A DNA stretch of 64,000 nucleotides from Selaginella moellendorffii (Eukaryota > Plantae > Lycopodiophyta): contig NW_003314355.1 in assembly GCF_000143415.4 (NCBI RefSeq), positions 391,410 through 455,409 on the forward strand. The letters run 5' to 3'. Shown here piece after piece: positions 7,289 through 47,145 of this stretch. The notes beneath the pieces are model-generated. The model was not told the DNA's origin. It ran no database searches and saw only the letters and a program-made list of their open reading frames with translations. The translations under genes and the position numbers were made by a program. Numbering within the stretch: position 1 is the stretch's first letter; every line of letters begins with the position of its first letter.

Positions 7289-7386
7289 TCAGTTTGCTGA
7301 GTCTTCTCAACTTGAATGTTGAGATAAGTTTCCTGAATTTATGTTTTGCCTAAGTTGTCTGGAGTCAGATGTTGTTCTTCATAGAT

Positions 7387-7533
7387 TGCAAAGTCAAGCT
7401 CTTATGTCTTGAGTCTTCAGCAAGTTTGTTTTTGGTGTATAAATGCGAAGTCAAGCTCTTGTGTCTTGAGTCTTCTGCAAGTTTGGTTTTGTAGTAGAAA
7501 TGCGAAGTCAAGCTCTTGTGTCTTGAGTCTTCA
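7387..7533. repeat. Three ~57-bp tandem repeats in element B upstream of gag
   Basis: AAGTCAAGCTCTT(A/G)TGTCTTGAGTCTTC x3. Confidence 0.85.
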
Positions 7534-8042: not shown

Positions 8043-8900
8043 CTATGGTCGATTGCGTGATGGTGCATTTCCCCGATGCTGTTCTTGCCGGTGGTGTTCT
8101 ACTTCCCTCTGTCGTATAACACGTTCTCTTTCACGATCAGAGTCGATCGCTTCACGAACTTCCCAAGGGATAGTCTCAATTAATACCCTTGCATTATAAG
8201 TTTGAATCCTTGACGCAGGATCTCCTAAAATACTCCTTAAAATGTTGAGACTGCTTGGACGCACTCTTCCTTGTTGGTTGCGAGTGATATGTAGCTCTAG
8301 GCTGGGGTTTCGACGTTGGACCTCAGTGTCAAAGTTGAAGTTTGTTACTGTATTTAATCTTGGCCTATTGTGATTCTGTCTTAAATTTCTCCTCCTTCGA
8401 CTTGTTATCCTTGAGTTTACAAGTCATTCCCTTGAACTTGATGCAAGTTTAGGTTCCCGTCGGTTTCTTAAACTCGAATTCCAAATTGGAATTTGTTGAT
8501 GGCCTTGTCCTTGATTTCTTAATTCTCCAGCTATTCTCGTCCGTCCTAAACGGTGCCAATATGCTATAGCATATAATTCGATAAGAGTACTTGTTGGTAG
8601 CGTTACACGGAGAGGACTTTGAAGAAGTCGGTAAAGTAATTCCGCGTTCTCTTCGAAATCTCTAAATCTAAGAGTGTCCACAAACCAACGAACTTGTGGT
8701 TCAAAAATTCCACACTCTGTTGCTGCTATGACTCTCGTCAAATCAATGTTGAAAGCAAGCGTTAATGGTTGAAAAGTTTCATGTTTGTGTATGCCTAGGA
8801 ATTCAACAATTGTTTGTTGAAAGAGGTGTCCGCGATACACCCAAGTCAGGGTTCTTCGAGTTGCAAAGAAATCGAAGTAAACATATTTTTCTTTCAACAT
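8043..8900 (-). pseudogene. Element B accessory ORF of unknown function (~286 codons, one in-frame TGA at 8424-8426)
   Basis: The 158-aa ORF 8424..8900 is in frame with 8043..8264, and the 53 codons between them are open. Confidence 0.55.
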
Positions 8901-8921
8901 TTCCTCATTTTTGCATCCCTC

Positions 8922-9251
8922 CTATTTGCTAGACAATTTGTAGAAGAGTCGCAGAATCGTTTCTTGAAGTTTTTGTAAACAACTAAAGCTTTGTTTCGCT
9001 GCTTGTTCTAAACTATTGTCTCTCTTTTTGGTGTCGTTTTCTTGGGCTATTTCTTCTTGTTTCCTACTCTCCTCTGCTGTGGCATTTTCATCCCTGATTC
9101 GGAGTCTTGCTTTTGCTTGCTTGCAAGTGTCGCATCGCCATTTTGGATAGCATTGCTTGTACGGTTTTGCACAATTTCTGAAACCACACAAAAGGCAGTC
9201 TTCGTATCTTGTACAGCTTGTGTCTCAAAATGGGCAGTCGTGCTTTTTCAT
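8922..9251 (-). pseudogene. Element B accessory ORF, PHD-finger-like Cys-rich protein with one in-frame TGA
   Basis: MKKHDCPF*DTSCTRYEDCLLCGFRNCAKPYKQCYPKWRCDTCK followed by a charged helical tail. Confidence 0.55.
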
Positions 9252-9610
9252 TCTTCCTCCATCTCCAGCCGCTAGAATTTTCCCTTAGTCGTTTCCTTAT
9301 CGCAGATCCTTGGAATATTCGCTTTCTTCAACCTCTCGCCAAAAACAGTTACGCATGCTCCAAGTTTTCCACGACTTGGGTGGCTTCAATCTTCATGTGT
9401 TCTTCATCTTTTGGTCTTACGCTCCATTTTTTTTCTTCATTCCTTCATGCTCTTCCACCGTTTTTGTTTTACGGTCTTGTTTTTCTTGATTTTTGGGGCT
9501 TTTTCTTCCTATGCCATTTTCTTGTGCGTCTTTGGTCCGTTTTCCTTGAAGTTTTGGGGAAAGTGAGCGTCTTGGTCTGCTCTATTCCATGAGCTCTTCA
9601 CATCACCATA

Positions 9611-9627
9611 TCCCACTGTGGTCGCTA
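9611..9627 (-). other. PBS complementary to the tRNA-Arg(UCG) 3' end
   Basis: The + strand reads TCCCACTGTGGTCGCTA. This matches the recalled plant tRNA-Arg(UCG) end TCCCACTGTGGTCG-CCA with one mismatch and lies 1 bp from the LTR. Confidence 0.8.
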
Positions 9628-9628
9628 G

Positions 9629-10047
9629 TGAAAACTCCTTGAATTCTCTGGACTGGGAGGAAACGTCCACACGAGATTTTCCTAGGAGTTTCAAATCTAA
9701 TCTAGTCCCTAAAACTAAAACTACACTACAAGAAGAGTGCACTTACCTGCTTGTGCCAAGCCAAGTAGAAACTATGAACATGTGCTTGAAGGTGTTAGTC
9801 CCACGCCTTTGATCCCTTGAAGGCGGTGGGTAAGTAAGACATTGCTGTGAATAGCCAAAGAGATAGGCAGAATGACGATGTATTGCAATGTATTTTGTAT
9901 TAGGGATAAGTCTAAAAACATTCTAAGTCCTACTTTTATAGTCGCTACTGCTCACGTCAAGGTTAGGAATACAGTCCTAACCTTGAACCTCTCAAGTTTA
10001 CTTTCCTAAGCTTGAATCCTCGAGCTTGTCTTTTTCTCCCTTCTCCA
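9629..10047 (-). repeat. Element B 5' LTR
   Basis: Followed on the minus strand by the PBS. Confidence 0.95.
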
Positions 10048-12378: not shown

Positions 12379-13453
12379 TGTAAGGAACCAACTCCCCGAG
12401 GTGTCGTAGGCTAAAGGATCCCCAAAAGCATGACTAAAATGACAAAGAGTTCATCGGATGGGACCGAGTTTGAGATCGAGTCTAAGACCGACTCTGAGAC
12501 CGAGTTCGAGATAGAGTCCAGAATCGAGTCCGAGGCCGACTCGGAGACCGAGTTTGAGACCGAGTTTGAGATGAAGTCCGAGATCCGAGAATCGGGTCCG
12601 AGACTGAGTCTGAGGTCGAGTCCAAAGTCGAGTCCGAGATCGAGCCCGAGACCGAGTTTGAGTACTAATACGGGTCAAGGGGTGAAAGCCCAAAGCGTGT
12701 GTCTCCCGGGGGGGGGGGGCTGCAGGGGGTTCCAAAAGTATAGTAGGGATAGTGAGGTCTAGGAACCAGTCTTGAAGGAACTCTCCAGTGGTGCTTCCAA
12801 ACTGACTTGAGGTTGAGACTGGGGCCGAGGGGCCTTGGGTGGGAGTGAGCATGGACTCGAGTGGTGCTAGAGGGGTTACCCAAGGAAGTGCTCAAGAGCA
12901 GCTCCCACTCCTGAAAGGGAAACCGACTACAGTGCTCCCGGCTCATGTGGAGTGGTGCCCCACTTGAGTACCATGTGGCTCATTAGTCCTTGCCCTTCCT
13001 AGGGGCTTGGGCCTTCCTTCGGGATGGAATTGGGGGGGTAGAGGTACCCCTATCGGGCCGTTAGGCCACAGTGTTTCGCCCCGGCGTCCCGAAGCAAGTG
13101 TTGCACCCAAGACTTGGGATTTAGAGGGTCCCATGATCAAGTTTTGTGGTACCAAGGGATGTTAGGAACCTGAAGGCTTGGTGTGCTTGGCTGCTTGTGC
13201 CTGCAGGGAGCGTAGCCGAACCTTAAGTCCAGTCTAACCCAAGGAGGGGGATTGGGAGAGATTTGGGAATCCGTGAATGGATGACTAACACTCCGTTGCT
13301 TGTGCAATGAGTAGCTAAAACCAAGTAGGACCAAGTAGGAGTTGGTACCATAGGCGAGAACCTTGGCGAGGGAACTTAGCAAAAGCCAAGGCAGTGTTGG
13401 ACAGGTAGACGAGGTAAGCCGGCAAATTGGAAAGGAAATATTTGTGGCTTACA
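12379..13453 (+). mobile_element. Solo LTR, family D
   Basis: TGTAAG...CTTACA termini. Interrupts C0 internal sequence. Degenerate TSD ACTAC/GCAAC. Carries GAGTCC-type hexamers and the shared LTR core. Confidence 0.8.
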
Positions 13454-16604: not shown

Positions 16605-18612
16605 TGTGAGACACAAAATCCCTAGGCCCCAAAGTGGAGCCGGAAGGGCGCCACGTGGTAGTGGCCGAAGCGAGAGCCAAACGAGCGTAACACGTTTGGA
16701 CCAAAAGCTCCGACTTGAAAAGTCAAGAGCGGGAGTGGAACTCCCAACGAAGTGCCCGAGGAACGAGCACAAAGCGAGCAAAAAGCGAGGCTCCAAAAAG
16801 GGACCCAAAAGGACCAACACATGACACGTGGAAGTGGAGTCCGAGATGGAGTCCGAGGTGGACCCGAGATGGACCCGACATGGAGTCCGAGATGGAGTCC
16901 GAGATGGAGTCCGAGATGGAGTCCGAGATGGAGTCCGAGATGGAGTCCGAGATGGAGTCCGAGATGGAGTCCGAGGTGGACCCGAGATGGACCCGAAATG
17001 GAGTCCGAGATGGAGTCCGAGATGGAGTCCGAGATGGAGTCCGAGATGGAGTCCGAGATGGAGTCCGAGATGGAGTCCGAGATGGACCCGAGATGGAGTC
17101 CGAGATGGAGTCCGAGGTGGACCCGAGATGGACCCGAGATGGAGTCCGAGATGGAGTCCGAGATGGACCCGAGATGGAGTCCGAGATGGAGTCCGAGATG
17201 GAGTCCGAGATGGAGTCCGAGATGGACCCGAGATGGAGTCCAAGATGGAACCGGGACTGAGATCAAGTCCGAGACCGAATCCGAAGTCGGATCCGAAATC
17301 GGATCCGAGATCGAGCCAGAGACTAAGTCCAAATACTAATACGGGTCAAGGGGTGAAAGCCCAAAGCGTGCGTCTCCCAGGGGGGGGGGGCTGCGGGGGG
17401 TTCCAAAAGTATAGTACGGAGAGTGTGGGGGTTGGAGCCCAGTGGAGCCAGTTGGGCCAGGAAGGGCCAGTTTGGCCCAGGAAGGGCCAGTTTGGTCCGA
17501 GGAGGCCATACCCAGTGTTGGGTGATGAGCTGCCCACTGGGAAGTCCAAGACTAGAGTGAACACGGACCGACAAGCGGGGTAGCTTGGTGAAGTGTTCAA
17601 GAGCCGGCTCTAGTTCCCCCGGGAGATCGACTGGCCGATGCTCCCAGTCCAAGTGTGGGTGGCACTACCTACTTGGATACCAGGCGTGGCTCAACGGAAC
17701 CCGCTCTAAGCCCATGGCTAGAGCACCCAAGGGCAGAAGGCGAGGAGAGTACCCAGGTGGCTCGCGTAAGGCCACGGTGTTCCGAAATGTTGTCCCAAAG
17801 GCCCAGACTGTGGAAAGGAAGAGGAGCAATCCTCTGGGGTAGTGACCAAGGACACAGTCGTGTGGTGAGGAAGTCCCAGAGGACCGTGGGACTTAGTGGT
17901 CGGGCCTGTGGGTCTTGATCCAGTGGCAGTGTTGGCAAACACGGCCAGGGGCAGAAAGGGACTTAGTGGGGACTGACAGAGGGATATTGGGGAAGGCTAT
18001 TCCCCTTGTCGGTGGGCATCCTAAGGATGTTAAGGAGTGGATCTGGGATGATCACTCATGGACGGATGACCCAGTCTTTGAGAGACGGGATCGGAATGCA
18101 GGTGGTGTTGGACCACCAGTGTGACCAAGGTAAATGGGCATGGCCTTAGCGTAACGGGCCGATACGTCGGTAGTACCTTGGGGTGTCGATCATGGGATCG
18201 GACACGTGGAGCACTTGGACCAAGTGCTAAGGTTGAGTGGCATGGATGCCATTCTCGGGGCTAGCAAGCCCCAAGTCTTGAGTGGGACTTATGGAGGTTG
18301 TGAATGAGACTCCTCCAAGTGGTCGGAGGTGTGGTTAAGTGACTAAAGTAGAATGGAAAATTTAGTCGCTTACAATTTGGTATCGGAGCTTTTCCTTAGT
18401 CCGACTTTTATTGGTGCTCAAGTATATCACCACTGGTGTTGGCAAGGGAAGGTCCGAGAAGTGGGCCTATCCTTGAGGAGTAGCAGGTCGGGAAGACATG
18501 GCTCTCCATTACAGTTCATGTGTGAACTTGTAGACAAGGTGGTGGATAGAAAAGAGGGCCAATAACGGAACGACGTTAGGATCTTGAGAACAGTGCAAGG
18601 TTTTCCTCATTG
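16605..18612 (+). mobile_element. Family C 5' LTR, PBS and leader inserted antisense in C1, 3'-truncated
   Basis: LTR at 16605-18374, PBS TGGTATCGGAGC at 18378-18389. Joins the host at a TTCCTC microhomology with ~200 bp of host sequence lost. Confidence 0.9.
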
Positions 18613-19130
18613 GTTAACTTTGCCATTTGGATCCCTTCCATTAAATTCCATGGCCCAAACTTGGCCACTAGTCCTTTGCTCCTATCCTTGATTGTTGCAC
18701 CCAGCAACATCGGATCGCTACCTCCATTTTTGAGGTATCCTTTCGGTTCCATAGCAAAGACTCTTCTTTGCCTAGTCCGGAGGATGTTCGCCCCTAGTAC
18801 GTCTCTTTAGCATCTTCTACTATGGGCTCTATCCATGGCCCAACTTTGTGACCCTCCCATGGGTCTTTTATAGAGACTACTTTCCTCGGACTCACTATGC
18901 CATCGGACGGATATAGTTTATTTCCCTTAGGTGCTCTTCCCACTTGGTCATCACGACTAGGCCACACCATCTTAAACAGTTCAATTTCAACATTTTGAAC
19001 CAGGAACTTCATTCCTTAGCCAACCAAGGACCTTGTCCTTATCTGGCCATAAGATCACCTAGTGATCTCACCTTGGCACCTTAACAGAGTTGCCAAGAGG
19101 TACTTGGTCTTCTAGACCTCCAAGTTGTTG

Positions 19131-19545
19131 ACTATAACCCCGGGGGCATCCCCCACACTTGGCGGTGCACCCAAGCTAGCCCTTACGGCCAAGGGTTCAT
19201 AGCAACTGAGATTAAGTGTCCCCATCTCACTCACCACGACCTTGGTGCCACTTGCACCAAAGCGTTCAAGTTAGATATGCCGAGCTTTCACTCTAAGCAA
19301 TCTAACTGTGCATCACGACTCCGAGGCATCCCTCACTTGGCGGTGCGCCCATACCAGTCTCCCCACTGAGAGTCCATGACCACCGAAATATGAGTGTCCT
19401 CATATTCCAAACCATCACCACGCCCTAGTGATTTGGGACTCGAACCCAAGCACTAGAGGGTCGGGACTCGAACCCAACCTCCGTATATGCATCTACAGAC
19501 GGCATCACACAAGATGCCTGGCGTGACTCCCCACGCCGGTGCACC
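19131..19545 (-). other. Predicted structured cis-RNA domain of family C (also ~23808-24210 and ~42712-43127)
   Basis: Array of hairpins, two GGGTTCGAGTCCC T-loop arms and two covarying four-way-junction modules. Confidence 0.65.
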
Positions 19546-22020
19546 AACTTATTTTTAAAGCGCGCTACAGATCACAGCTTAGGAACCTAGTTCCTCCACA
19601 CTGCCAAGTCCTCTCACTTGACATGTCTGTGATCATGCATGGACTCCTCCATGCTCGGCCCCATGGCCCACCCTTTTTGAAGTTATCACCTTCAACTAAG
19701 GTATTTGTTCCCCCGACGTGCCAATCTCGCTTGGCAAGTTCTCCGACCACTGTAACATGGTTCCTGCATAAGCGTGAAAGTCCTTGACCATCGACTTTCG
19801 TTCAAAGCCCTCTCTTTGAACACTCGGGAACTACTTCCCTAACCTTGATAGCCTTGCCTTATGGCAAGCTTCAAGACCACGCTTCTGCTGCGCCACTCTG
19901 ATTTCGCGCGTTCCATGAACCATTTACACTTGGCCTTTCTAGGTACTAAGCTACCTAAAATCGTCTTTGGGAACCTTGAAGGAACTCTGTCCCTCAGCTT
20001 GCTAAGGCCTCCCTTTTGCAAGCCTTCCAAATGCCACATAGTCTAACATGGACAATTCCATAACTTAGACTCTCCATGGCATCACGGTTGCTAGCGGCAA
20101 CACCCTCGAGCCCCCACTTGATTCTCCACTCCCAGCTGGCATAACCAACCTTGGTTATGCCTTTTGATTCCTACGGTTCGGTTCCATCCCCTTACTTCTT
20201 GCTTTTTGGCTTCACACCTTTCCTTTGGTCATTCTCCTCCAGACCAGGAGGATAGCTTTGCACTTTCTATCATGCTTTAGCAAGTATTCTTAGGGATGAA
20301 CCTACTCAATAGCCTAGGGAGTGGTTCCTCAATCCGGATATGCTCACCTTATAATCCCACACACTGGGATTACATTGTTGCTTATGGGTCTTTACATGCC
20401 CATCACTAGCCTTGCCAAAATTCCATTTTTGGCTTTGTCCAACTTGGGTAGACAGTCCTCTCCTGTCTCCGCAACCTTGGACATTTGGATAGCACCTTCT
20501 ATCCATCATTCGCTAGGGACTTAGTCCCTTGGGCTTTATCCATTGCCCTCGCGACATCAAACACCACCTTCTGGTGTTCTAGAGTGTTCAGGTGTCCCAA
20601 TGATGGCTTTCTTGACAATGAGTATTTCCTTTTATGACATTGACTTATTATATCGCAACATAAGCAACTTATCCCCCGCAAGGGTATATCCGACTTCCCT
20701 ATGCTAGAAGTCTTGGGTAGCTACCTTCTACCCGTTTAACTAGTTATTTTGCACCTCTTGCTTAGTTGCCTTATAGTTGTCAAGTCCTACAACTCATTGC
20801 TTGGTGCTTTCACACCTCCATCATTATCTGGGTCACCGCACTCCAACTGCATGCTCTGCAGCTTAGGCTATGCCATTCCCATTTCCATTGGGATTCCTTT
20901 GGCAAGGGGTTCTCATGAACCCACCAACATAGCCTCAAGGTATCACACCTTGGCACATTTGGTGTCTCCACACCATCGGCTCCACGAACCTACCTTTATG
21001 ACACTTCTTCTTTGTGTCTAAGTCTTTGCCAAGACCAATGCCACTCTTTCTCATGCCAACCATCCGTTAGCACTACACCATAGAGGTCACACACAACTTT
21101 GTGTCAAAGTTGTTTTCTTTTTGGGAACACCTTTCCCACGACTTTAGCATGGCACATTTTGCAATCAATGAGATACCCTCTGTTCTCATCCTTGGATCCT
21201 ATGATCCCCCCCCCATCTTTTGTGGGGTACAACACACCTCAGTCCAAATGCTTCCATTAGTCCTTTTAGGACCATCCCTTGACTCTACTTGAGTCATCCA
21301 GCAGTTTTGGACTTGGTTAATCCACAGACCCTTAAGGTCCTACTTGTGAGGCACTAGCTCACTGGAATACACTTCTTGCATTCCTGTCCTACTCAAAAGG
21401 ACTATTTTCACAAGTGTTACTCTAACACTTGATTTTGTTCTCTGGGGGCAACCTTTGCCCCTTAGGACTACTTGTCCATGTGATGAGAACACCAACTCAT
21501 CCACTTAATACACCCCCAACTCCTTGGGTTGTTTCAGCATTTATTAGAGGTAGCCCCGGCTACCTTTTCAAGGACTTGAGTCCTCTTCCGTATTTGACCT
21601 CCCACGGTCATTACTTCTGGTCTCACATTCATGAGCACCAACCTCAACTATATGAGGAAAATCTTGTGACTCCTTTATTGCTTTGGAGTCTTTATCTTTC
21701 CCGTGATCCCAACTGTAGTTGTTTGCCACAACTACATTAGCCAGTTTGCTAAGTCAAACGCTCATCTGGATCACATCCTCAACTCTTTGAGGAAAACCAT
21801 ATACTGTTCCCAAGATCCCAAAGTCGTTCCATTATTGGCCCTTTTCTATCCACCACCTCGTCTACAAGTTCACACATGAATTGTAATGGAGAGCCATGTC
21901 TTCCCGACTTGCTACTCCTCAAGGATAGGCCCACTCCTCGGGCCTTCCGATGCCAACACTAGTGGTAATATACTTGAGCACCAATAAAAGTCGGACTAAG
22001 GAACAGCTCTGATACCAAAT

Positions 22021-23159
22021 TGTAAGCGACTAAATTTTCCATTCTACTTTAGTCACTTAACCACACCTCTGACCACTTGGAGGAGTCTCATTCGCAACCT
22101 CCATAAGTCCAATCCAGGACTTGGGACTTGCTAGCCCCGAGAATGGCATCCATGCCACTCAACATTTGCACTTGGTCCAAGTGCTCCACGTGTCCGATCC
22201 CATGACCGACACTCAAAGGTACCACCGACATAGCAGCCCGTTACGCTAAGGCCATGCCCAATCACCTTTGCCACACTGGTAGTCCAATACCACTTGCATC
22301 ACTGTCTTGGCTCTTCAAGACTAGGCAAACCATCCGTGAGTGCTCATCTCAGATCCACTCCTTAGCATCCTTAGGATGCCCACCGACAAGGGGAATAGCC
22401 TTCCCCAATATCCCTCTGTCAGTCCCCACTAAGTCCCTTTCTGCCCCTAGCCGTGTTTGCCAACACTGCCACTGGATCGAGACTTCAGGCCCGACCACTA
22501 AGTCCCACGGTCCTCTGGGACTTCCTCACCACACGACTGTGTCCTTGGTCACTACCCCAGAGGACTGCTCCTCTTCCTTTCCACAGTCTGGGCCTTTGGG
22601 ACAACATTTTGGAACACCATGGCCTTACGCGAGCCACCTGGGTACTCTCCTCGCCTTCTGCCCTTGGGTGCTCTAGCCATGGGCTTAGAGCGGGTTCCGT
22701 TGAGCCACACCAGGTATCCAAGTAGGTAGTGCCACCCACACTTGGACTGGGAGCATCGGCCAGTCGATCTCCCGGGGGAACTAGAGCCGGCCCTTGAACA
22801 CTTCACCAAGCTACCCCGCTTGTCGGTCTGTGTTCACTCTAGTCTTGGACTTCCCAGTGGGCAACTCATCACCCAACACTGGCTCTGGCCTTCCTGGGCC
22901 AAACTGGCCTTTCCTGGCCAAACTGGCTCCACTGCAGTCCTCCCCCCACTATACTTTTGGAGCTCACCAAACCCCCCAGGGTCTGGGAGACGAACGCTTT
23001 GGGCTTTCACCCTCTCAGACTCGAACTCGAACTCGGACTCGGACTCGGACTTGGACTCGGACTCAGACTCGGACTCGGACTCGGCCTCGGCCTCGGTCTC
23101 GTTCTCGGTCCCGATCTCGGTCTCGTTCTCGGTCCCGATCTCGGTCTCGTTCTCGGTCC

Positions 23160-23194
<35 letters not shown>

Positions 23195-23807
23195 CCGGTC
23201 TCGGTCTCGGTCTCGGTCTCGGTCCCGGTCTCGGTCTCGACTTCGGACTCCATCTCGGACTCCATCTCGGACTCCATCTCGGACTCCATCTCGGACTCCA
23301 TCTCGGGTCCATCTCGGACTCCATCTCGGGTCCATCTCGGACTCCATCTCGGACTCCATTTCGGGTCCATCTCGGGTCCACCTCGGACTCCATCTCGGAC
23401 TCCATCTCAGACTCCATCTCGGGTCCATCTCGGACTCCACTTCGGACTCCAACTCGGGTCCATCTCGGACTCCACTTCGGACTCCAACTCGGGTCCATCT
23501 CAGACTCCACTTCGGACTCCAACTTGGGTCCATCTCGGACTCCACTTCGGACTCCAACTCGAGTCCATCTCGGACACTTCCACATGTCATGTGTTGGTCC
23601 TTTTGGGTCCCTTTTTGGAGCCTCGCTTTTTGCTCGCTTCGTGCTCGTTCCTCGAGCACTTTGTTGGGAGTTCCACTCCCGCTCTTGACTTTTCAAGTCG
23701 GAGCTTTTGGTCCAAACGTGTTATGCTCGTTTGGCTCTCGCTTCAGCCACTACCACGTGGCACCCTTTCCGGCTCCACTTTGGGGCCTAGGGATTTTGTG
23801 TCTCACA
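22021..23807 (-). repeat. C1 5' LTR with internal tandem array (~23020-23575)
   Basis: TGT..ACA termini; (GGACTC)n, (GGTCTC)n, (GGACTCCATCTC)n and 36-bp higher-order units. Confidence 0.95.
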
Positions 23808-24664
23808 CCTGGTGGCATCTCCCACACTTGGCAGTGCGCCCAAGTCAGTCCTTCCAGCCAAGGGTCCATAACAACTGAGATTAGGTGTCCCCATTTCATT
23901 CACCACATCGTTAGTGACACTTGCGCCAAAGTGTTCAAGTTAGATATACCAAGCTTTCACACTAAGCAATCTAACTGTGTATCATGACTCTGGGGCATCC
24001 CCCACTTTGGCGGTGTGCCCAAGCCAGTCTCCCTACTGAGAGTCCATGAGCACCGAAAAATGAGTGTCCTTATATTCCAACCCATCACCACGCCTTAGTG
24101 AGTTGGGACTTGAACCCAAGCACTAGAGGGTTGAGACTTAAACCCAACCTCTATATATGTATCTACGGATGGCATCATCCAAAATGCCTGATGTGACTTC
24201 CCACACCAGTGCACTAATGTATATTTAAAGCACATTGTAGATCACAGCTTAGGAAGCTAGTTCCTCTGCACTTCCAAGTCCTCTCACTTGACATGTTTGT
24301 GATCATGCATGAACTCCTCCATATTTAGCGTCATGGCCTACCTCTTTTTGAAGTTAATAGCCTCAACTAAAGTCTTTATTCCTCGACTTGTCAATTTCAT
24401 TTAGTAAGTCACCCAACATAGTTTTCAACATAAGTGTAGCACACGTGGTTTTTTGACCCTTTATCCTATGGTGATTTACCATAGGATAACACCACGAAGC
24501 AGAACCTAAACCCTCTTTGTGCCACATGACAGATGCCACATGTCACATGCCACGTGTCCAAAGGACAGTGGTGTGGAACCGGAGGTTCAAGGCCTTGGGC
24601 CATTGAACGAAGGAACGGTGCCAAAGTCTCCCAAGCATCGAACCACGGAGCAACTCCCGAGCAT

Positions 24665-27600
24665 TGTCGCGCATGTGACTTCGGGTATCGAAAGTTACCT
24701 GTCGACCAGTCCTTACGGACACTCTTACCTTACTACCACGATGGCAGGAGGTCGGTATTGCTGGACCCTTTATCAGTCCCTCTTGTGCTAGTGGAGTTAA
24801 CTGGGCATTTCGAGTGTACTTAGACCGGACGAGCATAAGGACGGAATTCCTACGTGTTATTAGCTAAACATACTTAGCCCAGTAAGGAGTTCCCGTCTCG
24901 TTTTGTCTTGCACTTGCTAGTGACAAGAACCCTCGTGTATTGAGATTGGTCCCTCAATATCGCTACATGATAGCTTACCGTGTCTGCCAAACACCCTCGC
25001 TATCATGCCCTTTGTGTTAGTCTCATTTCGGTCCCAAATGCTATCTATGGAAAGTGTCCAGATTTGCTCATTTGGCATATCTACGGAATGTAGAGATCGT
25101 TCTGAACACAATGGTGTTCGTCCCATATCCAAATTCACAATCTAGGGACATTCCATATTTAGTAAGTTTCGAGCTTGTCCCAGAAACTAACTCCTGATAC
25201 TAAAGGAGGCTTGGGGTGAAAGCCCAAAGCGTGTGTTCCTCAAGGGGGGGGGGGGGCTGTGGGGGGTTCCAAATGTATAGTAGGGATAGTGGGTAGGTCG
25301 GGCATGGCCGACCAACCTGAGGCATAGTCTAGCTCCCGCTTGCGTGCCTGTCCTTGTTCTGCGTCCGGCTTGGGTCTAAGCCCAAGTTCCATTCCATGCT
25401 AGTTGGTGGAGTACCCATATCCTCACGTTAGGCCTCACGTTAGGTTCCTATGGACACGTGGCATGTGACACGTGGCATCTGTCACGTGGCACAAAGAGGG
25501 TTTAGGTTCCGCTTCGTGGTGTTATCCTATGGTAAATCACCATAGGATAAAGGGTCAAAACCACGTGCGCTACATTTGGTATCAAAGGATGAGTCTCAGT
25601 GAGTACTATTCAATGAGATTAGGCAACTAGTCTCGTTGCATACGCAGAGATGAAAACGATGATCCGAGTGGGTACACGTTTGGTGCAAAGGGTTCACATT
25701 TGTTCCTTGGGTATGGTTTTGGTTACCTTTTGTACCTAACAATGTGAGCTTGCTCTTGGGCTCATAGGATGGATTTGAGATGCTCCGTTAGCACGAGTTT
25801 GAGCTTGGGGTCGTGAGTGAGGCGCATTAGCAACTCGAGGATACGCTTTGAGTTGGCAGGATTAATGTTAGTCTATCGGTGGTTCCATGAGTTGTTCCAG
25901 TGGTTCTATGAGTTGTTCCATGTACCGTGGGTGAAAGCAAACCTCCTTGAGTTTGCTATGAGTGGCAAATAGGCTAGTCCGTAGCTATTTAGCACGGCAC
26001 TAGTAGATCTTTCTTAGGCATGATTACAAGTGAATCAACCAAGATTGTAAGGATTAGTCTATTGGTTCAAGTAATCATTGTTGTGCTCTCTCATAAACTT
26101 TTCTTGGATTGAACTGAAGGCAGTGCGAAAGTAAGCTTGAGGTTTGGTCAAAAGATGAGATCGAAAAGAGAGTCGTCGGGGACAAAGGATCAAACACGTA
26201 AATCATCTTCTCTTTTTGGAGGGATGATTTGCAACGAGGTGTGACTCATTGCTCGTGTTCACATTATGCAATCAAGAGTCCCTATCTTGATGCATGATGA
26301 TTATGATGGTCTTACAAGTGGTGAGTTATGGGATGGATAGCGGTGAAACGCTAAACCATTGTGTCTAGGCTCACTATTGGAAGACTTGGGTTACAATGCT
26401 CAATTCTTTTCCGGGGAACTTAGCTATTGCTCCTTGAGTAGCTTGGTGTTGGGTTAAGTTTTGAGTTTGATCGGATAGCGAGTGGCATGAGCTTGTTTGT
26501 GTTGTGAACAAAAGTTAGTGGTGTTGGGTGTTGTAAATCTCTATCGGTAGAGTGTGGCATTTATGTTGCATTCTGTCAAGTTGAGTTGGTACTTGATATT
26601 CATGTAAACCTTTGAAGTAATGACATTGGCATTGTTCGTGGTGTTGCTCAATTGATGATCAAGTCATTGTGATACTTATATCATATCCATGTGATAATGA
26701 GCAATGTGTTTACGAAGTTGCTTAGTTAAGCGATGATCAACTCCAAAGTGGTTGATGGTGAAGCCAGTCTACTTGCATAAAGTAGCATTGTAGTAGCTTT
26801 GACTGGATTCTCGTTGGTGGTCCATTATGCTAAGCTTAAGTTGGTTCCTTGTTTCCTTGAGTTTGCCCACTAAGGTGTTGGAAAAGGGTTGTAGCATTTA
26901 GTTGCTATAGCTCATTAGTTGATCCGTTAACACTTGGAGTAGATTGTTGGATGAAGAAGATGTGTAGTTGGGGCATTAACATCACTAGCACTTGTGTTAG
27001 TGGAAGTGGCATTGTTACTTCGAGTTATGAGGAATTTTCCTTAGAGCTTGATTTTCCATGTCATTTTTCTTGTTAGTATTTTAGCTTCACATTGGATCTT
27101 GAAGGTGGTTGAAGAAGAGTGTTAGTGCAATATGAATATCCGAAGATATGGTCTCCATGATCAAGCTTTAGATGTTCATTTTGCATTCTGCAGACGTTGG
27201 TGTTGGATGTTGAAAGAATGGGCAAAAAGATGTTCGAGGCTTAAGCATACTATGGATCATGAGAATTTGTGTTAAGGTGAACCTATGTGAAGTTGTTGGT
27301 AGGAGGAAGTTGGTTGAGTCTTGAAAGTTTGAATTCCTGGACTGAGAGTCATTCTTTCTCTAGGATGGAAAAATTTTTCACAAATTTTCTTAGACTTTTC
27401 CAATGGCTGATCTGTTATCCCTTTGTTCGAAAACCATTCCGTTTTCCTAAGCCAATACAAACTAGTGAAGGGGTTGGAGTTGACTTCGGTTAACTTAGAC
27501 CTTAGTATGTAGTTTGTATGATGCGGCCCGAAAGGGATGCTAACTTTTGGGGCTATTGCAATTGAGTTGGATAGAGTCTGGAGTTAGTGTAGAAAAGTGG

Positions 27601-30600
27601 CGTTGCACTTTTCTAGAAAGGTGACCCTTGTGCCTTTCTTTTGTAGTGTTATGCTTGGTGGCAGATTGCACTTTGCATTTCGTTAGACTCTATGAGAGTA
27701 GTGAGCTCTCACTGATCTTGACTTGGTCTTGGTGGCCCTGCGCCTTGGCTGAGGATGGTGATGTTCAGCTTAGTTGTTTGAGTTTGAGATGTTGGTACCC
27801 GTACTGTAGCTTTGTCTATGAGGAGGTTGTGTACCGATATGAGTCCATCTCATGGTCTTCACTTTAGTTTTGACTGAGTATTGATCATGCATAGCTAGCC
27901 TCTTCAAGGCATGCTCAGAGCTAGTGGCTAAATGCATTAGTGAGCTTATCGCAGTTGAGTTGGATTCGAGTGGTCATTTAATTCGTGCTTGTCCATGAAC
28001 CTTTATCTCATATCTAGGGTATTACGTTCATGTTGGACAAAGTGTATGACTCGATGACGTGAGTTAGTGTTTAGGTCTTGTGAAAGGCAAGACAAGTGAT
28101 TGTTGGTTGCTTTGCAACTAGTGATTGCTTATAGACTTTGTCAAGGGCTTTTGACACTTGCTTCACTCGATGATGATTTAGTAGTGATGGGCTTGCTTTA
28201 CCGGATGGGGTTGCGGAGGATCGTGTCGTTAGACTTACATGGGTTTTCCATGTTGGCATATCGACTCTACCTCTGTCAATATCATTTGGTTGCGTTTAGT
28301 TCGTGATGTTGGATTTCATTGAGTCTTGGACGTGGTGATTCACTCCTTGAGAAAGTGTTATCTGTAACTGAGTTTTGCTAAAGGATTGGTCTCGGTTACT
28401 AACTAAAGTATCTTCGACCTTGGTTAGCTTAGTTGCTAGAGAGCTTTGAGTGGTGATTCACTCGTGCTTTCTTTTAGCTTTGTTCTAGTGTTGATGGTAT
28501 TGAAGTGATGCCTTATCGTTAACATTGTTGATGTTGAGATTTCAGTGAAATGAGATGTCTCTCTACAAGATTGATGTCGAGTTTCATTAGTCTTGATGAA
28601 GATAGTGTTGATGATTTGGCTATAGCTCTGTATTATTAGCATTCGCGCATTTGCTAGATAGCAACTGTTTGACGTTCAAATGAACTGAGTGGCAAATTGA
28701 GTTAGTTATGTTCTAGACGAGATTAGTAGGGGTTGAGCTTTGAGCTTTTCCTTGAAAAGTGATTTAGTCATGGACTATACTAACTCTACAAGTGGGAGAG
28801 TTAGTGATTAATATTGGAATATTTAAATCCTTATGGGATTTTAGTTGAAATATATTGATCATTGATGATTCTTCTTGTGCTTGTTATGAAGTGAGTTATG
28901 TCTTGCTATAGATGGATTCATGGAGGATCGTTTGGTGATCACTTGTTGAGCATAGCTTCGTTGTGCTTAGCTTTTGGATTGATGCAGATATGCTCTTCAT
29001 TAGCTTTGCATTATGAAGTTTAGCTTATAGATGTGTTGAGGAGGATATTGTAGGTTGTACCATAATTTCTTCTTTAGCATTGACGTTAGTCTATGCGAAA
29101 CTCGTGATCATTATTAGGCAAGACTTGGCTATAGACTTCTTTGAGCTTTTGGTTCTTTGAGTTTTCATGCTCATTGTTCCATTTGTTAGGAGTTGTTGGG
29201 GGAAGGCATTTTGGCTCATTAGCTTTGATGTTGACGTTAGTATTTGCATCAAGCAATCATTGGTGATGATTGACTATCATCTAAGATAGTTGATTATCCT
29301 TGTCAAAAAGTTTTGCTTGATTGTTGTTGATATAGAATGATTTGCTATTCTTCGGGGTAGTGGATTCTTTCTTAGACGATGATTATGCATCTCTTTATTG
29401 ATGAGATGATTGATGATCTTTCGTGATAGTTAGTTATTCTCTTTGATGGCTTTTGACTTTTCGCAATACCACATGCTCTTTGTGGTTTGCTCTGGATTGG
29501 TCTCTTGGGTTTGAGACATCAATAGAATGTTGCTGACACTTGCTTAGGCAACTTAAGTTCCTTAATATTGTTGGCTGGGATCTATTTGGATTGGCTCGTG
29601 TGATAGTTGACATGACCGAGTGTTTGTTGGCCATGCAACATTCATTCTATTCTGTTGATTATTGCTCGAGTTTGTTCTGATAGATTGGAATGTTATTTCC
29701 TCCGGGTGATACATTCGCGAGCATTTTGCTTGCTTGTCGATGATACTTGGTGTTCTTTGAGTTCCCTTTTCTAAGTTGTTTGGCATTCTATCTGCAATCT
29801 TTGATAGTTAAGTTTGGTAATTGAGTTTGATGATACACTTGCTATTGAATTTTGTTGGATGGTCATTCCTGTGTTTGCCAAATTCTGATGATCTTGGTGG
29901 TTCCTATCTACAATCATATTGGTTTATCGGATGATAACTTACTTGGAATACTTTTGTGTTCTAATCTAAAAATTATTCACTGATAATTAAGTCTCTAAGA
30001 TATCATTGTTTATGACTTTGATATTGTCCATCTATTGATCTTTGAGTTTGGGCCAGTATAGGCAGACTGGCTTCGGCACTTCGTGTGCATGTTGAAATCT
30101 CTAGTCATGGGGTAGCTACTGTAGACTGGTCACATAACCCGCCTCTCTGTCGATGTTCCTTATTCTGTTGAAAGGGCGTGACCGTGTAAACAACTCTAAC
30201 TGCCTGTTTATAGTAGTTTATCTAAACCTTACCGACGGGTTTGGTTTCTTTGCTCAGGAGGGTTGGGGCCTCTGGCTTCTCTCTCTATGTCTCTGCGGGC
30301 AGGGCATATCACACTTTTGTAAGCTGGATGACAACCAGAGCAGCAAGGGTGGCTGACTCCGTTGGTCATTTCCTTGTCGGCGACGGCCGGAAGGTGTCTG
30401 AGCTGGTAGCGCATCCGCGTTAGACAAAGAGGTTACCCTTAACTCATTTAAGTTGGTGCATTTCTCACATAGTGTGAGTACCGTGAACTTTTTCTGGAGT
30501 TGTTTCCTTGGCGGTATTCTAGACTCGAGTATGCATCGACGAGGACATCGATCTTCCCTAGGGGGGGAGAGTGTCGCACATGTGACTTCGGGTATCGAAA

Positions 30601-39896: not shown

Positions 39897-42800
39897 TGTA
39901 AGCGACTAAATTTTCCATTCTACTTTAGTCACTTAACCACACCTCTGACCACTTGGAGGAGTCTCATTCGCAACCTCCATAAGTCCAATCCAGGACTTGG
40001 GACTTGCTAGCCCCGAGAATGGCATCCATGCCACTCAACATTTGCACTTGGTCCAAGTGCTCCATGTGTCCGATCCCATGACCGACACTCAAAGGTACCA
40101 CCGACATAGCAGCCCGTTACGCTAAGGCCATGCCCAATCACCTTTGCCACACTGGTAGTCCCCACTAAGTCCCTTCCTACCCCTGGCCGTGTTTGCCAAC
40201 ACTGCCACTGGATCAAGACTCACAGGCCCGACCACTAAGTCCCACGGTCCTCTGGGACTTCCTCACCACACGACTGTGTCCTTGGTCACTACCCCAGAGG
40301 ATTGCTCCTCTTCCTTTCCACAGTCTGGGCCTTTGGGGCAACATTTCGGAACACCGTGGCCTTACGCGAGCCACCTGGGTACTCTCCTCGCCTTCTGCCC
40401 TTAGGTGCTCTAGCCATGGGCTTAGAGCGAGGTTCCGTTGAGCCACGCCTGGTATCCAAGTAGGTAGTGCCACCCACACTTGGACTGGGAGCATCGGCCA
40501 GTCGATCTCCCGGGGGAACTAGAGCCGGCTCTTGAACACTTCACCAAGCTACCCCGCTTGTCGGTCCGTGTTCACTCTAGTCTTGGACTTCCCAGTGGGC
40601 AGCTCATCACCCAACACTGGGTCCGGCCTTCCTGGGCCAAACTGGCCTTTCCTGGCCAAACTGGCTCCACTGCAGTCCTCCCCCTACTATACTTTTGGAG
40701 CTCACCAAACCCCCCAGGGTCTGGGAGACGAACGCTTTGGGCTTTCACCCTCTCAGGCTCCGGACTCGGACTCGGACTCGGACTTGGACTCGGACTCGGA
40801 TTCGGACTCGGACTCGGGCTCGGGCTCGGGCTCGGTCTCGGCCTCGGCCTCGGTCTCGGTCTCGGTCCCGATCTCAGTCTCGGTCTCGGTCTCGGTCTCG
40901 GTCCCGGTCTCGGTCTCGACTTCGGACTCCATCTCGGACTCCATCTCGGACTCCATCTTGGGTCCATCTGGGACTCCATCTCGGACTCCATTTCGGGTCC
41001 ATCTCGGGTCCACCTCGGACTCCATCTCGGACTCCATCTCGGACTCCATCTCGGACTCCAACTCGGGTCCATTTCGGACTCCACTTCGGACTCCAACTCG
41101 GGTCCATCTCGGACTCCACTTCGGACTCCAACTCGGGTCCATCTCGGACTCCACTTCGGACTCCAACTCGGGTCCATCTCGGACTCCACTTCGGACTCCA
41201 ACTCGAGTCCATCTCGGACACTTCCACGTGTCATGTGTTGGTCCTTTTGGGTCCCTTTTTGGAGCCTCGCTTTTTGCTCGCTTCGTGCTCGTTCCTCGAG
41301 CACTTCGCTGGGAGTTCCACTCCCGCTCTTGACTTTTCAAGTCGGAGCTTTTGGTCCAAACGTGTTACGCTCGTTTGGCTCTCGCTTCGGCCACTACCAC
41401 GTGGCGCCCTTCTGGCTCCACTTTGGGGCCTAGGGATTTTGTGTCTCACAACTCCACCACCCATAGACGAAGTTCGATGTCCTCATCGAACGGTAAACCA
41501 TTTTTTAAAGTAACACTCGCATGTGTTACCATTTCCATCCTTGGCACCTAGCCAATATTTGTCAATGGTTTGACATTTAAGGCTCACCATGCCTTCTCCA
41601 TATTTGTCAATGGTTTGACATTGAAGGCTCACCATGCCCTTTGTATATGCCTCAATGGTTTGACACCAAAGGCTCACCATGCCTTGCCTATCCTCTAAGG
41701 AGGGTAGTCTCTCCAACTTAGAGACTGATTGGACCACATATAGTGGTTCTCTCCTTTTATTGGTTTAGTTCTCGCTAAACTTCTTAGAGACCCTTCTCTA
41801 AGTCAATCCCACTACTCCTTCTCGAGTAGTCTCAATTTCCATCTATTGAACGTTTGCACCTTGGAACTTTTACTCTCTTGACTTTTGGAAGTCAATTTCC
41901 TAGGTGTCTCCAACACCTTGCATTGCACAGATTGTGCAACTCCACTTCCCCATCCTAGGAAGCTCATTACTTGAGGGCACCATCATCCTCTCTTCTATTT
42001 TGTGCCACCTTGGGCACTAAGTTCCATTTATCATACTTTGTGCTAGGGCTGTCCATGGCCCTATCATTTGGCTACCTTACCGCTCCCTCCCTTGGAGCTT
42101 CCACTTTCGCCAAATCAGAGCAATTTGGAATTCATCCTTGGAAACACACTTCCTTTTCCGGAATTTGTTAGCGTCCAACACATTAGTGTTCCTCGCCTAA
42201 CTTTGTCACTTGGATTCCTTCCAAGGGATTCCACGGCCCTATCTTGGCCACTCATCTTTTGCTCATATCCGTTGATTGTTGCACCAAGCAACATCGAATC
42301 TTTACCTCCCTCCTTGAGGTATTCTTTTGATTCCATAGCAAAGGCTCTACTTTGCCAAGACTAGGGTGTTCGCCCCTAGTAAGTCTCTTTAGCATCTTCT
42401 GCTGTGGGCTCTATCCACGGCCCAACTTTGTGACCCTCCCATGGGTCTCTTTAGAGACTACTTTCCTTGGACACACTATGCCATCGCAATGACATAGCTC
42501 ATTTCCCTAGGGTGCTTTTCCCACTTGGTCACCTTGACCAAGCCACACCATCATCAATAGTTCAAATCAACACTTTGAACTAGGAACCTTATTCCTTAAC
42601 CCAAACAAGGACCTTGTCCTTATTTAGCCACAAGATCACCTAGTGATCTCACCTTGGCACCTTAACAGGTTTGCCAATAGGTACTAGGTCTTCCAGACCT
42701 TTAATTTGTTAACTACGACCCCGGGGGCATCCCCCACACTTGGCGGTGCGCCCAAGACAGCCCTTCCGGCCAAGGGTCCATAGCAACTGAGATTAGGTGT

Positions 42801-45800
42801 CCCCATCTCACTCACCACGTCCTTGGTGCCACTTGCACCAAAGCGTTCAAGTTAGATATGCCGAGCTTTCACACTAAGCAATCTAACCGTGCATCACGAC
42901 TCCGAGGCATCCCTCGCTTGGCGGTGTGCCCAAACCAGTCTCCCCACTGAGAGTCCATGACCACCGAAATATGAGTGTCCTCATATTCCAAACCATCACC
43001 ACGCCCTAGTGATTTGGGACTCGAACCCAAGCACTAGAGGGTCGGGACTCGAACCCAACCTCCATATATGCATCTACGGACGACATCACCCAGGATGCCT
43101 AATGTGACTCCCCACGCCGGTGCACCAACTTGTACTCAAAGCGCGCTATAGATCACAGCTTAGGAACCTAGTTCCTCCCCACTGCCAAGTCCTCTCACTT
43201 GACAAGCCTGTGATCATGCATGGACTCCTCCATGCTTGGCCCCATGGCCCACCCTTTTTGAAGTTATCACCTTCAACTAGGGTATTTGTTCCCCTGACTT
43301 GCCAATCTCGCTTTGGCAAGTCCTTCGACCACTGTAACATGGTTCCTGCACAAGCGTGAAAGCCCTTGATCATCGACTTTCGTTCAAAGCCCTCTCTTTG
43401 AACACTCGGGAACTACTTCCCTAACCTTGATAGCCTTGCCTCATGGCAAGGTTCAAGACCACGCTTCTGCTGTGCTACTCTAATTTCGCGCGTTCCTTGA
43501 ACCATTTACGCTTGGCCTTTCTAGGTACTAAGCTACCTAGAATCCTCTTTGGGAACTTTGAAGGAACTCTATCCCTTAGCTTGCTAAGGCTTCCCTTTTT
43601 GCAAGCTTTCCAATTACCATATAGTCTAACATGGACAATTCCATATTTTAGACTCTCCATGGCATCACGGTTGCTAGCGGCAACACCCTCGAGCCCCCAC
43701 TTGATTCTCCACTCCCAGCTGGCATAACCAACCTTGGTTATGCCCTTCGATTCCTATGGTTCGGTTCTATCCCCTTACTTCTTGCTTTTGGCTTCACACT
43801 TTTCCTTCGGTCATTCTCCTCCGAACCCGGAGGATAGCTTTGCACTTTCTATCATGCCTTAGCAAGTATTCTTAGGGACGAACCTACCCGATAGCCTAGG
43901 GAGTGGTTCCTCAATCTAGGTATGCTCACCCTATAATCCCACACACCGGGATTACGTTGTTGCTTACGGGCCTTTGCATGCCCCTTGCTAGCCTTGCCAA
44001 AATTCCATTTTTGGCTTTGTCCAATTCGAGTAGACAGTCTTCTCCTGTCTCCGCCACCTTGGACATTTGGATAGCACCTACTATCCATCATTTGCTAGGG
44101 ACTTAGTCCCTTGGGCCTTATCTACTGCCCTCGCGACATCAAACACCACCTCCTGGTGTTCCAGAGTGTTCGGGTGTCCCAATGATGGCTTCCTTGACAA
44201 TGAGTATTTTCTTTTATGACATTGACTTACTATATCGCAACATAAGCAACTTATCCCCCGTAAAGGTATCCCCAACTTCTCTATGCCATTAAGAAGGCTT
44301 GGGTAGCTACCTTCTACCCGTTTAACCAATTATTTTGCACCTCTTGCTTAGTTGCCTCATAGTTGTCAAGTCCTACAACTCATTGCTGGTGCTTCCACAC
44401 CTCCATCATTATCTGGGTCACCACACTCTAACTGCATGTTCTACAGCTTAGGTTATGCCATTCCCATTTCTATTGGGATTCCTTTGGCAAGAGGTCCTCA
44501 TAAACCCGCCAACATAGCCTCAAGGTATCACACCTTGGCACATTTGGTGTCTCCACACCTTGACACATTTGGTGTCTCCACACCATCAGCTTCACGAGCC
44601 TACCTCTATGACACTTCCTCTTTGTGTCTAGGTCTTTGCTAAGACCAATACCGCTCTTTCTCATGCCAACCATCGGTTAGCACTACACCATAGAGGTCAC
44701 TCACAACTTTGTGTCAAAGTTGTTTTCTTTTTGGGAACACCTTTCCCACAACTTTAGCATGACACATTTTGCCATTGATGAGATACCCTCTGTTCTCATG
44801 CTTGGATCCTATGATCCCCCCCCATCCTTTGTGGGGTACAACGCACCTCAGTCCAAATGCTTCCATCAGTCCTTTTAGGACCATCCCTTGACTCTACTTG
44901 AGTCGTCTAGCAGTTTTGGACTTGGTTAATCCACAGACCCGTAAGGTCCTACTTGTGAGGCACTAGCTCACTGGAATACACTTCTTGCATTCCTGTCCTA
45001 CTCAAAAGGACTATTTTCACAAGTGTTACTCTGACACTTGATTTTGTTCTCTGGGGGCAACCTTTGCCCCTTAGGACTACTTGTCCATGTGATGAGAATA
45101 CCAACTCATCCACTTAATACACCCTTAACTCCTTGGGTTGTTCCAGCATTTATTAGCCCCGGCTACCATTTCAAGGACTCGTGTCCTCATCCATACTTGA
45201 CCTCTCACGGTTATCCATTCCGGTCTCATCTTCATGAGCACCAGCCTCAACCATGTGAGGATAAACTTGTGACTCCTTTATTGTTTTTTGGAGTCTCTAT
45301 CTTCCCCGTGATCCCAACTATAGTTGTTTACCCCAACTACATTAGCCCGTTTGCTGAGTCAAACGCTCATCTGGATCACCTCCTCAACTCAATGAGGAAA
45401 ACCTTGCACTGTTCCCAAGATCCCAAAGTCGTTCCATTATTGGGCCCTTTTCTATCCACCACCTTGTCTACAAGTTCACACATGAACTGTAATGGAGAGC
45501 CATGTCTTCCCGACCTGCTACTCCTCAAGGATAGGCCCACTTCTCGGACCTTCCGTTGCCAACACCAGTGGTGATATACTTGAGCACCAATAAAAGTCGG
45601 ACTAAGGAACAGCTTCGATACCAAATTGTAAGCGACTAAATTTTCCATTCTACTTTAGTCACTTAACCACACCTCTGACCACTTGGAGGAGTCTCATTCG
45701 CAACCTCCATAAGTCCAATCCAGGACTTGGGACTTGCTAGCCCCGAGAATGGCATCCATGCCACTCAACATTTGCACTTGGTCCAAGTGCTCCACGTGTC

Positions 45801-47103
45801 CGATCCCATGACCGACACTCAAAGGTACCACCGACATAGCAGCCCGTTACGCTAAGGCCATGCCCAATCACCTTTGCCACATTGGTAGTCCCCACTAAGT
45901 CCCTTCCTGCCCCTGGCCGTGTTTGCCAACACTGCCACTGGATCGAGACTCACAGGCCCGACCACTAAGTCCCACGGTCCTCTGGGACTTCCTCACCACA
46001 CGACTGTGTCCTTGGTCACTACCCCAGAGGATTGCTCCTCTTCCTTTCCACAGTCTGGGCCTTTGGGGCAACATTTCGGAACACCGTGGCCTTACGCGAG
46101 CCACCTGGGTACTCTCCTCGCCTTCTGCCCTTAGGTGCTCTAGCCATGGGCTTAGAGCGAGGTTCCGTTGAGCCATGCCTGGTATCCAAGTAGGTAGTGC
46201 CACCCACACTTGGACTGGGAGCATCGGCCAGTCGATCTCCCGGGGGAACTAGAGCCGGCTCTTGAACACTTCACCAAGCTACCCCGCTTGTCGGTCCGTG
46301 TTCACTCTAGTCTTGGACTTCCCAGTGGGCAGCTCATCACCCAACACTGGGTCCAGCCTTCCTGGGCCAAACTGGCCTTTCCTGGCCAAACTGGCTCCAC
46401 TGCAGTCCTCCCCCTACTATACTTTTGGAGCTCACCAAACCCCCCAGGGTCTGGGAGACGAACGCTTTGGGCTTTCACCCTCTCAGGCTCCAGACTCGGA
46501 CTCGGGCTCGGGCTCGGTCTCGGCCTCGGCCTCGGTCTCGGTCTCGGTCTCGGTCCCGATCTCAGTCTCGGTCTCGGTCTCGGTCTCGGTCCCGGTCTCG
46601 GTCTCGACTTCGGACTCCATCTCGGACGCCATCTCGGACTCCATCTCGGGTCCATCTGGGACTCCATCTCGGACTCCATTTCGGGTCCATCTCGGGTCCA
46701 CCTCGGACTCCATCTCGGACTCCATCTCGGACTCCATCTCGGACTCCAACTCGGGTCCATTTCGGACTCCACTTCGGACTCCAACTTGGGTCCATCTCGG
46801 ACTCCACTTCGGACTCCAACTTGGGTCCATCTCGGACTCCACTTTGGACTCCAACTCGAGTCCATCTCGGACACTTCCACGTGTCATGTGTTGGTCCTTT
46901 TGGGTCCCTTTTTGGAGCCTCGCTTTTTGCTCGCTTCGTGCTCGTTCCTCGAGCACTTCGTTGGGAGTTCCACTCCCGCTCTTGACTTTTCAAGTCGGAG
47001 CTTTTGGTCCAAACGTGTTACGCTCGTTTGGCTCTCGCTTCGGCCACTACCACGTGGCGCCCTTCCGGCTCCACTTTGGGGCCTAGGGATTTTGTGTCTT
47101 ACA
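39897..47103 (-). mobile_element. Family C copy C2, structurally complete, young, non-autonomous
   Basis: LTRs at 39897-41450 and 45627-47103 share a private deletion. TSD CTACA at 39892-39896 and 47104-47108. PBS ~45612-45623. PPT at 41451-41462. No long non-repetitive ORF. Confidence 0.95.
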
Positions 47104-47145
47104 CTACATCATGACAGATGCCCGAAGTTCATTGTTGAGTTGCAC

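Follow-up and report, generated by a model that had tools for sequence, protein, structure and literature searches.

The window, that is, the whole stretch of 64,000 nucleotides that was analysed, contains a nest of LTR elements (Table 1), together with a PPR-repeat fragment (52741-53112) and Copia remnants at approximately 48.4 and 51.4 kb. The elements of main concern here belong to family C, whose full-length copy in the window, C2, has paired LTRs with TG...CA ends, a Met-type primer site (TGGTATC) and a 5-bp target duplication (TGTAG). The two LTRs of this copy differ at 18 of 1477 positions, which indicates that the family has moved recently, and its copy number must be very high, given that in one DNA run (X1) 22,915 contig pieces fall on the 1,061 bases around the units described below. 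None of the six frames of the C2 interior matches a retroelement family in Pfam and none of its three sense frames matches a retroelement protein in the PDB; no trace was found of the destroyed pol that an earlier note on this DNA had placed beside the units. Large retrotransposon derivatives (LARDs) include Sukkula and Dasheng (PMC7215508, PMC4558846). With a length of 7.2 kb (the LARD criterion being more than 4 kb without gag/pol coding capacity), the terminal features of C2 and a conserved structured interior, seen in hairpin-rich windows and in the covariation of the units, family C agrees with a LARD-type LTR element that is young, non-coding and present in very many copies. Since it is young, very abundant and devoid of genes, it has presumably been mobilised in trans by an autonomous element (compare PMC7215508 and PMC4558846, as far as their excerpts go).

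Table 1. Features of the window and of the two-unit module (window positions; minus-strand items within units run from high to low numbers)
Feature	Position	Strand	Remarks
C2, full-length family C copy	39897..47103	-	7.2 kb; interior 4.18 kb, non-coding
C2 LTRs	47103-45627; 41450-39897	-	TG...CA ends
C1 5' LTR	22021..23807	-	TG...CA ends; tandem repeats inside
C1 primer-binding site	22017-22006	-	TGGTATCAGAGC; follows 5' LTR
C1 unit 1	19308..19422	-	predicted four-way junction, 0 unpaired junction bases
Unit 1, 5' motif	19422-19415	-	CGUGGUGA
Unit 1, GACA hairpin	19409-19384	-	loop 19398-19395
Unit 1, closing stem P1	19383 to 19308	-	
Unit 1, arm P2	19369-19354	-	
Unit 1, arm P3	19353-19336	-	loop L3 19348-19341
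Unit 1, arm P4	19335-19322	-	GAUG loop 19330-19327
C1 spacer between units	19239..19306	-	two stable hairpins (19235-19310, z -5.0)
C1 unit 2	19127..19238	-	matched by unit-1-only structure model, 63.8 bits
Unit 2, 5' motif	19238-19231	-	
Unit 2, GACA loop	19220-19217	-	
Unit 2, closing stem P1	19206 to 19127	-	encloses GNRA-capped P2
Unit 2, loop L3	19170-19163	-	
Unit 2, GAUG loop	19150-19147	-	
C2 units 1 and 2	42707..43003	-	1.26 kb upstream of 3' LTR
C4 units 1 and 2	23808..24092	-	unit 2 cut by C1 insertion; CpG decay
Two adjacent hairpins	19479-19459; 19456-19425	-	directly 5' of unit 1; single, not duplicated
Hairpin and three-way junction	19566..19672	-	weak resemblance to units, without L3 arm
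Sense copy of tRNA-iMet 5' ~27 nt	19876..19902	-	also C2 ~43484-43458, C3 ~36141-36115
Family A, second non-coding LTR family	24654-31708	+	Met-type primer site, without Pfam domain
Family A, further copies	1-4225; 31785-36008		
Solo LTR D	12380-13453	+	1074 bp; resembles SM1-Galahad LTR description

The surroundings of these copies deserve a brief description. The length of the family C LTRs ranges from 1.45 to 1.79 kb owing to variable arrays of 11-12-nt tandem repeats (22940-23600, and in other C LTRs), and copies of the family land in or beside one another: C2 adjoins the LTR of C3 (39891-39897), and C1 is inserted within unit 2 of C4 (23808). A core of approximately 70 nt is common to three LTR types (12380-13453 on the plus strand, 24654-25574, 30572-31708 and 22021-23807); in families A and C and in solo LTR D, the shared sequence includes a TATA-like box and a G-rich tract besides the core motif, and the tract consists of G only in A and D, with interruptions in C1. 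Immediately upstream of its polypurine tract, family A also has a short hairpin similar to one at the corresponding place in family C. Two other elements lie nearby, a small TRIM-like one (47144-47815) with 170-bp repeats, a Met primer site on the minus strand and a T-loop/B-box-like motif just past that site, and one at 4226-10047 (minus strand) that has repeats of 417 bp together with a Gag ORF (PF03732, PF19259), in which pol was not detected and which is possibly TR-GAG-like.

The interior of family C contains, in the 3' half of the element and 2.6 kb downstream of the primer site, two units of approximately 115 nt that follow each other with a start-to-start spacing of 184 nt; the tails that complete the 184-nt period after each unit show no significant likeness (P 0.2). 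This two-unit region is present three times within the window, in C1, in C2 and in the older C4, and neither structure nor sequence models found units in families A, B or D here. As the earlier note had described, both units of C1 lie on the minus strand and each begins with CGUGGUGA, followed by a GACA hairpin and by a closing stem that encloses three arms. The closing-stem sequences read there, including AACCC/GGGUU in C1 and GACCC/GGGUC in C2, are borne out, and the stem proved a few pairs longer than had been drawn, reaching 19308 and 19127; it has 12-13 pairs, and the arms can meet in a four-way junction without unpaired bases. The GACA tetraloop occurs in all six units of C1, C2 and C4. 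The form given for the third arm, UUGG-G(C/U)GCACCG-CCAAG, does not describe unit 1 of C1, where the arm reads UAUGG-GCGCACCG-CCAAG (the usual unit-1 loop is GCACACCG), and the strict invariance claimed for the loop sequence CACCG fails in the decayed unit 2 of C4, which has CACUG. C1 alone has A at 19352 and G at 19346, given that 99.9-100% of the contig depth of run X1 differs at these positions, and one of these two private changes breaks a pair of the third arm, which makes C1 less than ideal as a representative of the family.

Upstream of the units there are other RNA features. The loop UUCGAGU in the two hairpins directly 5' of unit 1 is what we take to be a tRNA-like T-loop; these hairpins can also be read as B-box-like motifs, and no TTTT run occurs on the sense strand from 19956 to 18613. 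Farther upstream, the three-way junction at 19566-19672 is detected by the unit-1 structure model with 22.2 bits in its C2 copy (E 1.8e-4) and 10.2 bits in its C1 copy, is missed by the sequence-only model and aligns to the units with P 0.02-0.25; it is possibly an older paralogue of the units and a candidate third one. The stretch at 19902-19876 is identical at 24 of 27 positions to a human 5'-tiRNA-iMet given in PMC13625232 and at 18 of 19 to a wheat small RNA that PMC5411081 labels a novel miRNA. Part of it is predicted to pair approximately 100 nt downstream, and it was probably captured through a template switch onto the packaged primer; ARAGORN found no tRNA. As for transcription, 3.8 kb of family C attracted 9 and 11 RNA reads in two raw runs of 9.2 million each, which leaves next to no expression of the family in these two samples. 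In a contig of run X19 over 18688-22420, probably derived from a transcript, the LTR end (22020) is fused directly to 19723; the primer site and 2.3 kb are missing, and the two-unit domain is retained. The joint is not GT-AG in comparison with the three copies of the window, and its simplest reading is a deletion at a TGG microhomology; the same contig has a 26-nt A-rich insertion at 19551.

The divergence between the two units makes it possible to ask whether their common architecture has been maintained. When unit 1 is compared with unit 2, in four comparisons of 27-28 pairs, 6-7 pairs have changed on both sides, 4-5 have kept pairing through a single change and 0-1 are broken against 5-6 expected (joint P 2.8e-4 to 5e-6), where the expectation was obtained by re-placing the substitutions on random stem positions and the pairs were assigned with both units in view. 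The earlier note had named a lack of significant covariation as a refutation, and these counts speak for the fold. Models built from unit 1 only are a more independent test than that comparison. Unit 2 receives 66.8 and 63.8 bits from the structure model and 37.4 and 31.6 bits from the sequence-only one, that is, structure adds approximately 30 bits, with a gain of 1 bit only for the truncated and decayed unit of C4. Across the five complete units, in an alignment fitted to the structure model from which the truncated unit 2 of C4 was dropped by the E-value cut, pairing holds in 97.8% of 186 cells, compared with 35-45% when the partners are slid, and both sides change in 10 of 38 pairs.

The unpaired parts of the units tell the other half of the story, since between units they are identical at 24 of 25 positions, compared with 39 of 56 in the stems (P 0.009), and four short single-stranded motifs are fixed. 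Variation within the family follows the same lines: nine in-unit variants occur among the 40 of 170 family variants that are listed, and each of the nine keeps or restores a pair, keeps the GNRA loop or lies outside the pairing part of L3. In one of these cases, 19197/19136, the first site reads A or G and the second U or C, the linkage between the two not being visible, and the variant at 19367 is seen in a single run. Similarity and covariation above chance, fixed loops and the gain of approximately 30 bits make it very likely, as judged from sequence comparison, that the four-way fold of the units has been under selection. In the predicted fold, the GACA hairpin would stack on the closing stem, and this stem would lead into the four-way junction.

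Other measures set limits on this picture. The earlier note had expected the units to be more conserved than the neighbouring interior, and no significant excess was found, with 13 of 230 positions differing in the units and 252 of 3158 in the rest of the interior between C1 and C2 (P 0.25), and 29 of 218 and 66 of 382, respectively, between C1 and C4 (P 0.24). Much of the divergence between copies is CpG decay that followed insertion and is largely neutral, which gives this test low power. The folding stability of the units is ordinary (z -0.35 to -2.63), and the module lies within a long hairpin array, 36 of 68 windows on the sense strand of the interior having z of -2 or lower. Unit 2 also has a competing fold, in which its 5' motif is base-paired to the closing stem; if the pseudoknot is left out of the count, this alternative is favoured by 5-9 kcal/mol. 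It may represent a switch, or the drawn fold may need protein or Mg2+.

The pseudoknot in question, the pairing of CACCG with UGGUG proposed earlier, holds as regards complementarity, which is present in all six units (GUGGUG with CACCGC, approximately -9 kcal/mol as a bare duplex). No covariation is seen across the six units, which is uninformative on this point because both strands are invariant. Its sixth base pair and the uppermost pair of P3 exclude each other. The L3 of unit 2 can pair with itself through 4-6 bp (-8.5 to -9.5 kcal/mol), and the usual L3 of unit 1 does not (-2.7 kcal/mol). On the basis of these models, a GUGGUG/L3 pseudoknot is possible.

The question of what the units do starts from the fact that a gene-less mobile element must have its RNA exported, bound by the Gag of a helper and packaged. 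The interpretation that we prefer, tentatively and by analogy, is that they are a tandem duplication of a selected fold that may act as a helper-recognition or packaging tag, which is quite possible, if somewhat short of probable. The Gag of a helper element, likely a Galahad-type chromovirus to judge from LTR features, would recognise the duplicated units and package the gene-less RNA, and the presence of two units would confer a higher avidity with respect to the helper's own RNA. The loop L3 could pair with GUGGUG within its own unit, in the other unit or in a second RNA, and this pairing would compete with the fold in which GUGGUG meets the closing stem, a possible switch; the fixed GACA and GAUG loops, complementary through CA/UG, might form a two-pair kiss or be contacted by proteins. 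An RNA that binds protein or makes tertiary contacts is suggested by the fact that the stems have diverged and the loops are fixed.

Experience with other elements bears on the packaging tag in both directions. Packaging signals have been described as conserving structure rather than sequence (PMC4558846), and the main Gag binding site of Ty1 is a pseudoknot, which counts in favour, but this pseudoknot is dispensable for packaging, which counts against (both in PMC6844567). Known packaging signals, as far as they are covered in the excerpts of PMC5874298 and PMC4974528, lie near the 5' end. The tag is made less convincing by the distance of 2.6 kb between primer site and module, a position that suits export elements, by the absence of any unit from family A, in spite of the LTR core and the Met-type primer site that it has in common with family C, and by the lack of excess conservation, the ordinary stability and the more stable rival fold of unit 2.

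The main rival, which the earlier note did not raise and which we consider unlikely and nonetheless deserving of serious attention, is that the module serves nuclear export or cytoplasmic trafficking in the manner of the MTE of MusD and the RTE of IAP and would recruit a host factor for the export of full-length RNA. Here, too, the argument is one of analogy. The location in the 3' half of the element agrees with this idea, since the MTE, a multi-stem RNA of approximately 400 nt, is found beside the 3' LTR and depends on a kissing loop and a pseudoknot (PMC4588558), and fixed loops would suit a protein-binding surface; moreover, according to the available text of PMC12786077, the export of plant LTR element RNA has so far had no direct study. 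Nevertheless, the units do not adjoin the 3' LTR, being 1.26 kb away from it, neither their sequence nor Rfam links them to a known export element (Rfam may not include the MTE and RTE families), and the absence of the module from family A weighs against export as well.

A more elaborate proposal, rather doubtful, takes the units as a doubled tertiary RNA switch, in which a pseudoknot would lock the four-way junction, the GACA and GAUG loops would join two genomes and the RNA would out-compete the helper for Gag. The literature searched yielded nothing on a GACA/GAUG kiss. If it were true, the switch, together with the tRNA mimics, would constitute a structurally defined packaging and dimerization signal of a plant LTR element that is internal rather than 5'-terminal.

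It might also be thought that selection acted on the fold in an ancestor, or only within a general compaction by hairpins, and that the units have no specific role today, an explanation that strikes us as decidedly doubtful. It would account for the missing excess of conservation between copies, for the hairpins found throughout the interior and for the near absence of RNA reads in two samples. General compaction does not explain invariant loops within diverged stems, however, the compensatory changes postdate the duplication and the common living variants still respect the pairs, and the conservation test itself is weakened by the largely neutral, post-insertion origin of the copy differences.

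It is improbable that the domain captures or positions the primer tRNA, in the way of Ty1, with its additional tRNA-binding boxes, or of Ty3, whose primer site is split into segments at opposite ends of the RNA (PMC4974528). A role of this kind is brought to mind by the tRNA-iMet 5' fragment and the two T-loop hairpins upstream of the units, as well as by the end of the fragment, GCGUGGU, which equals the start of unit 1; the duplex energies do not favour it, given that the best value of the tRNA-like stretch (used in place of the host tRNA) with the C interior is -18.3, against -19.6 with the family A control, and that L3 ranks 8th in C1 and outside the top 10 in C2. Hairpin ribozymes have internal loops in their arms, and the arms of the units have none. 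A self-cleaving, retrozyme-like ribozyme, a reading also raised in the earlier note, can be set aside as highly improbable in spite of the compact junction, the invariant single-stranded bases, the possible pseudoknot and the precedent of plant retrozymes (PMC5680766), because no known ribozyme core of Rfam matches at gathering score or at E <= 10, abundant RNA is absent in two raw runs and cleavage in the middle of the genomic RNA would presumably destroy the copy template.

Returning to the packaging tag and to the module as such, the comparison with Rfam that had been called for yielded no family: no match at gathering score in the whole window, two weak and unrelated ones (E 1.4 and 7.9) in 18600-19900 and none in 19400-20000 or 42400-43600, the fold being absent from Rfam 15. 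A pattern scan gave 0, 0 and 11 loci in viral contigs, 8 in metagenome contigs and 0 and 0 in prokaryote genomes, and all 19 were rejected as chance, with at most 14.8 bits and essentially the seed pattern alone. No description of a duplicated four-way module was found in the literature searched, whose scope left subscription journals and Repbase aside.

Among known systems, the likeness suggested earlier with the packaging signal of MLV turns out to be loose. The hairpins SL-C and SL-D of MLV, at the 5' end of the RNA, have GACG loops (PMC5874298) that kiss through two G.C pairs (Kim and Tinoco, 2000, by its title as cited in PMC5874298), and the resemblance consists in two hairpins with a conserved GAC- tetraloop in the RNA of an LTR element. 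The tetraloop of all six units is GACA, which lacks the self-complementary CG and cannot pair with itself in that way, and the hairpins of the units, separated by 180 nt and each joined to a four-way junction, lie far from the 5' end and outside the 5' leader, 2.6 kb past the primer site. With Ty1, likewise a Met-tRNA-primed LTR retrotransposon, family C would share a pseudoknot, which in Ty1 binds Gag (PMC6844567, PMC4974528); that of Ty1 is long-range and 5'-terminal, whereas that of family C is local, duplicated, internal and predicted only. The MTE of MusD and the RTE of IAP resemble the module as multi-stem RNAs of the 3' part with a predicted pseudoknot and a possible loop-loop contact (PMC4588558, PMC12786077, as excerpted), and differ from it in host kingdom, in sequence, in its duplicated units and in its distance of 1.26 kb from the 3' LTR.

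Within plants, the LTRs of SM1-Galahad of Selaginella moellendorffii exceed 1 kb and contain poly-G tracts, and its primer site is of the Met type (PMC3350952). SM1-Galahad is a coding element and family C is not; it may serve as the helper and may share the module, and the available portion of its description does not mention RNA structure. Unlike Helenus and Cassandra, elements of less than 1.3 kb whose short LTRs contain sequence derived from tRNA or 5S, family C measures 7.2 kb and has its tRNA-like pieces in the interior. Few helper-parasite pairs have been proposed, the signal for selection is thought to be structural, and the way in which helper particles choose gene-less plant LTR elements is largely an open question, according to the excerpts of PMC4558846. 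A module of approximately 115 nt with internal covariation and four fixed motifs tells precisely where mutations should be placed when structure, Gag binding, dimerization and export are assayed. The closest known counterparts of family C are the LARDs, whose structured interiors are known in general terms, a description at the level of a module being absent from the parts of PMC7215508 and PMC4558846 at hand. What appears to be new here, to judge from Rfam and the literature searched, is the specific duplicated four-way module: one defined structure with covariation, fixed loops and a tandem duplication.
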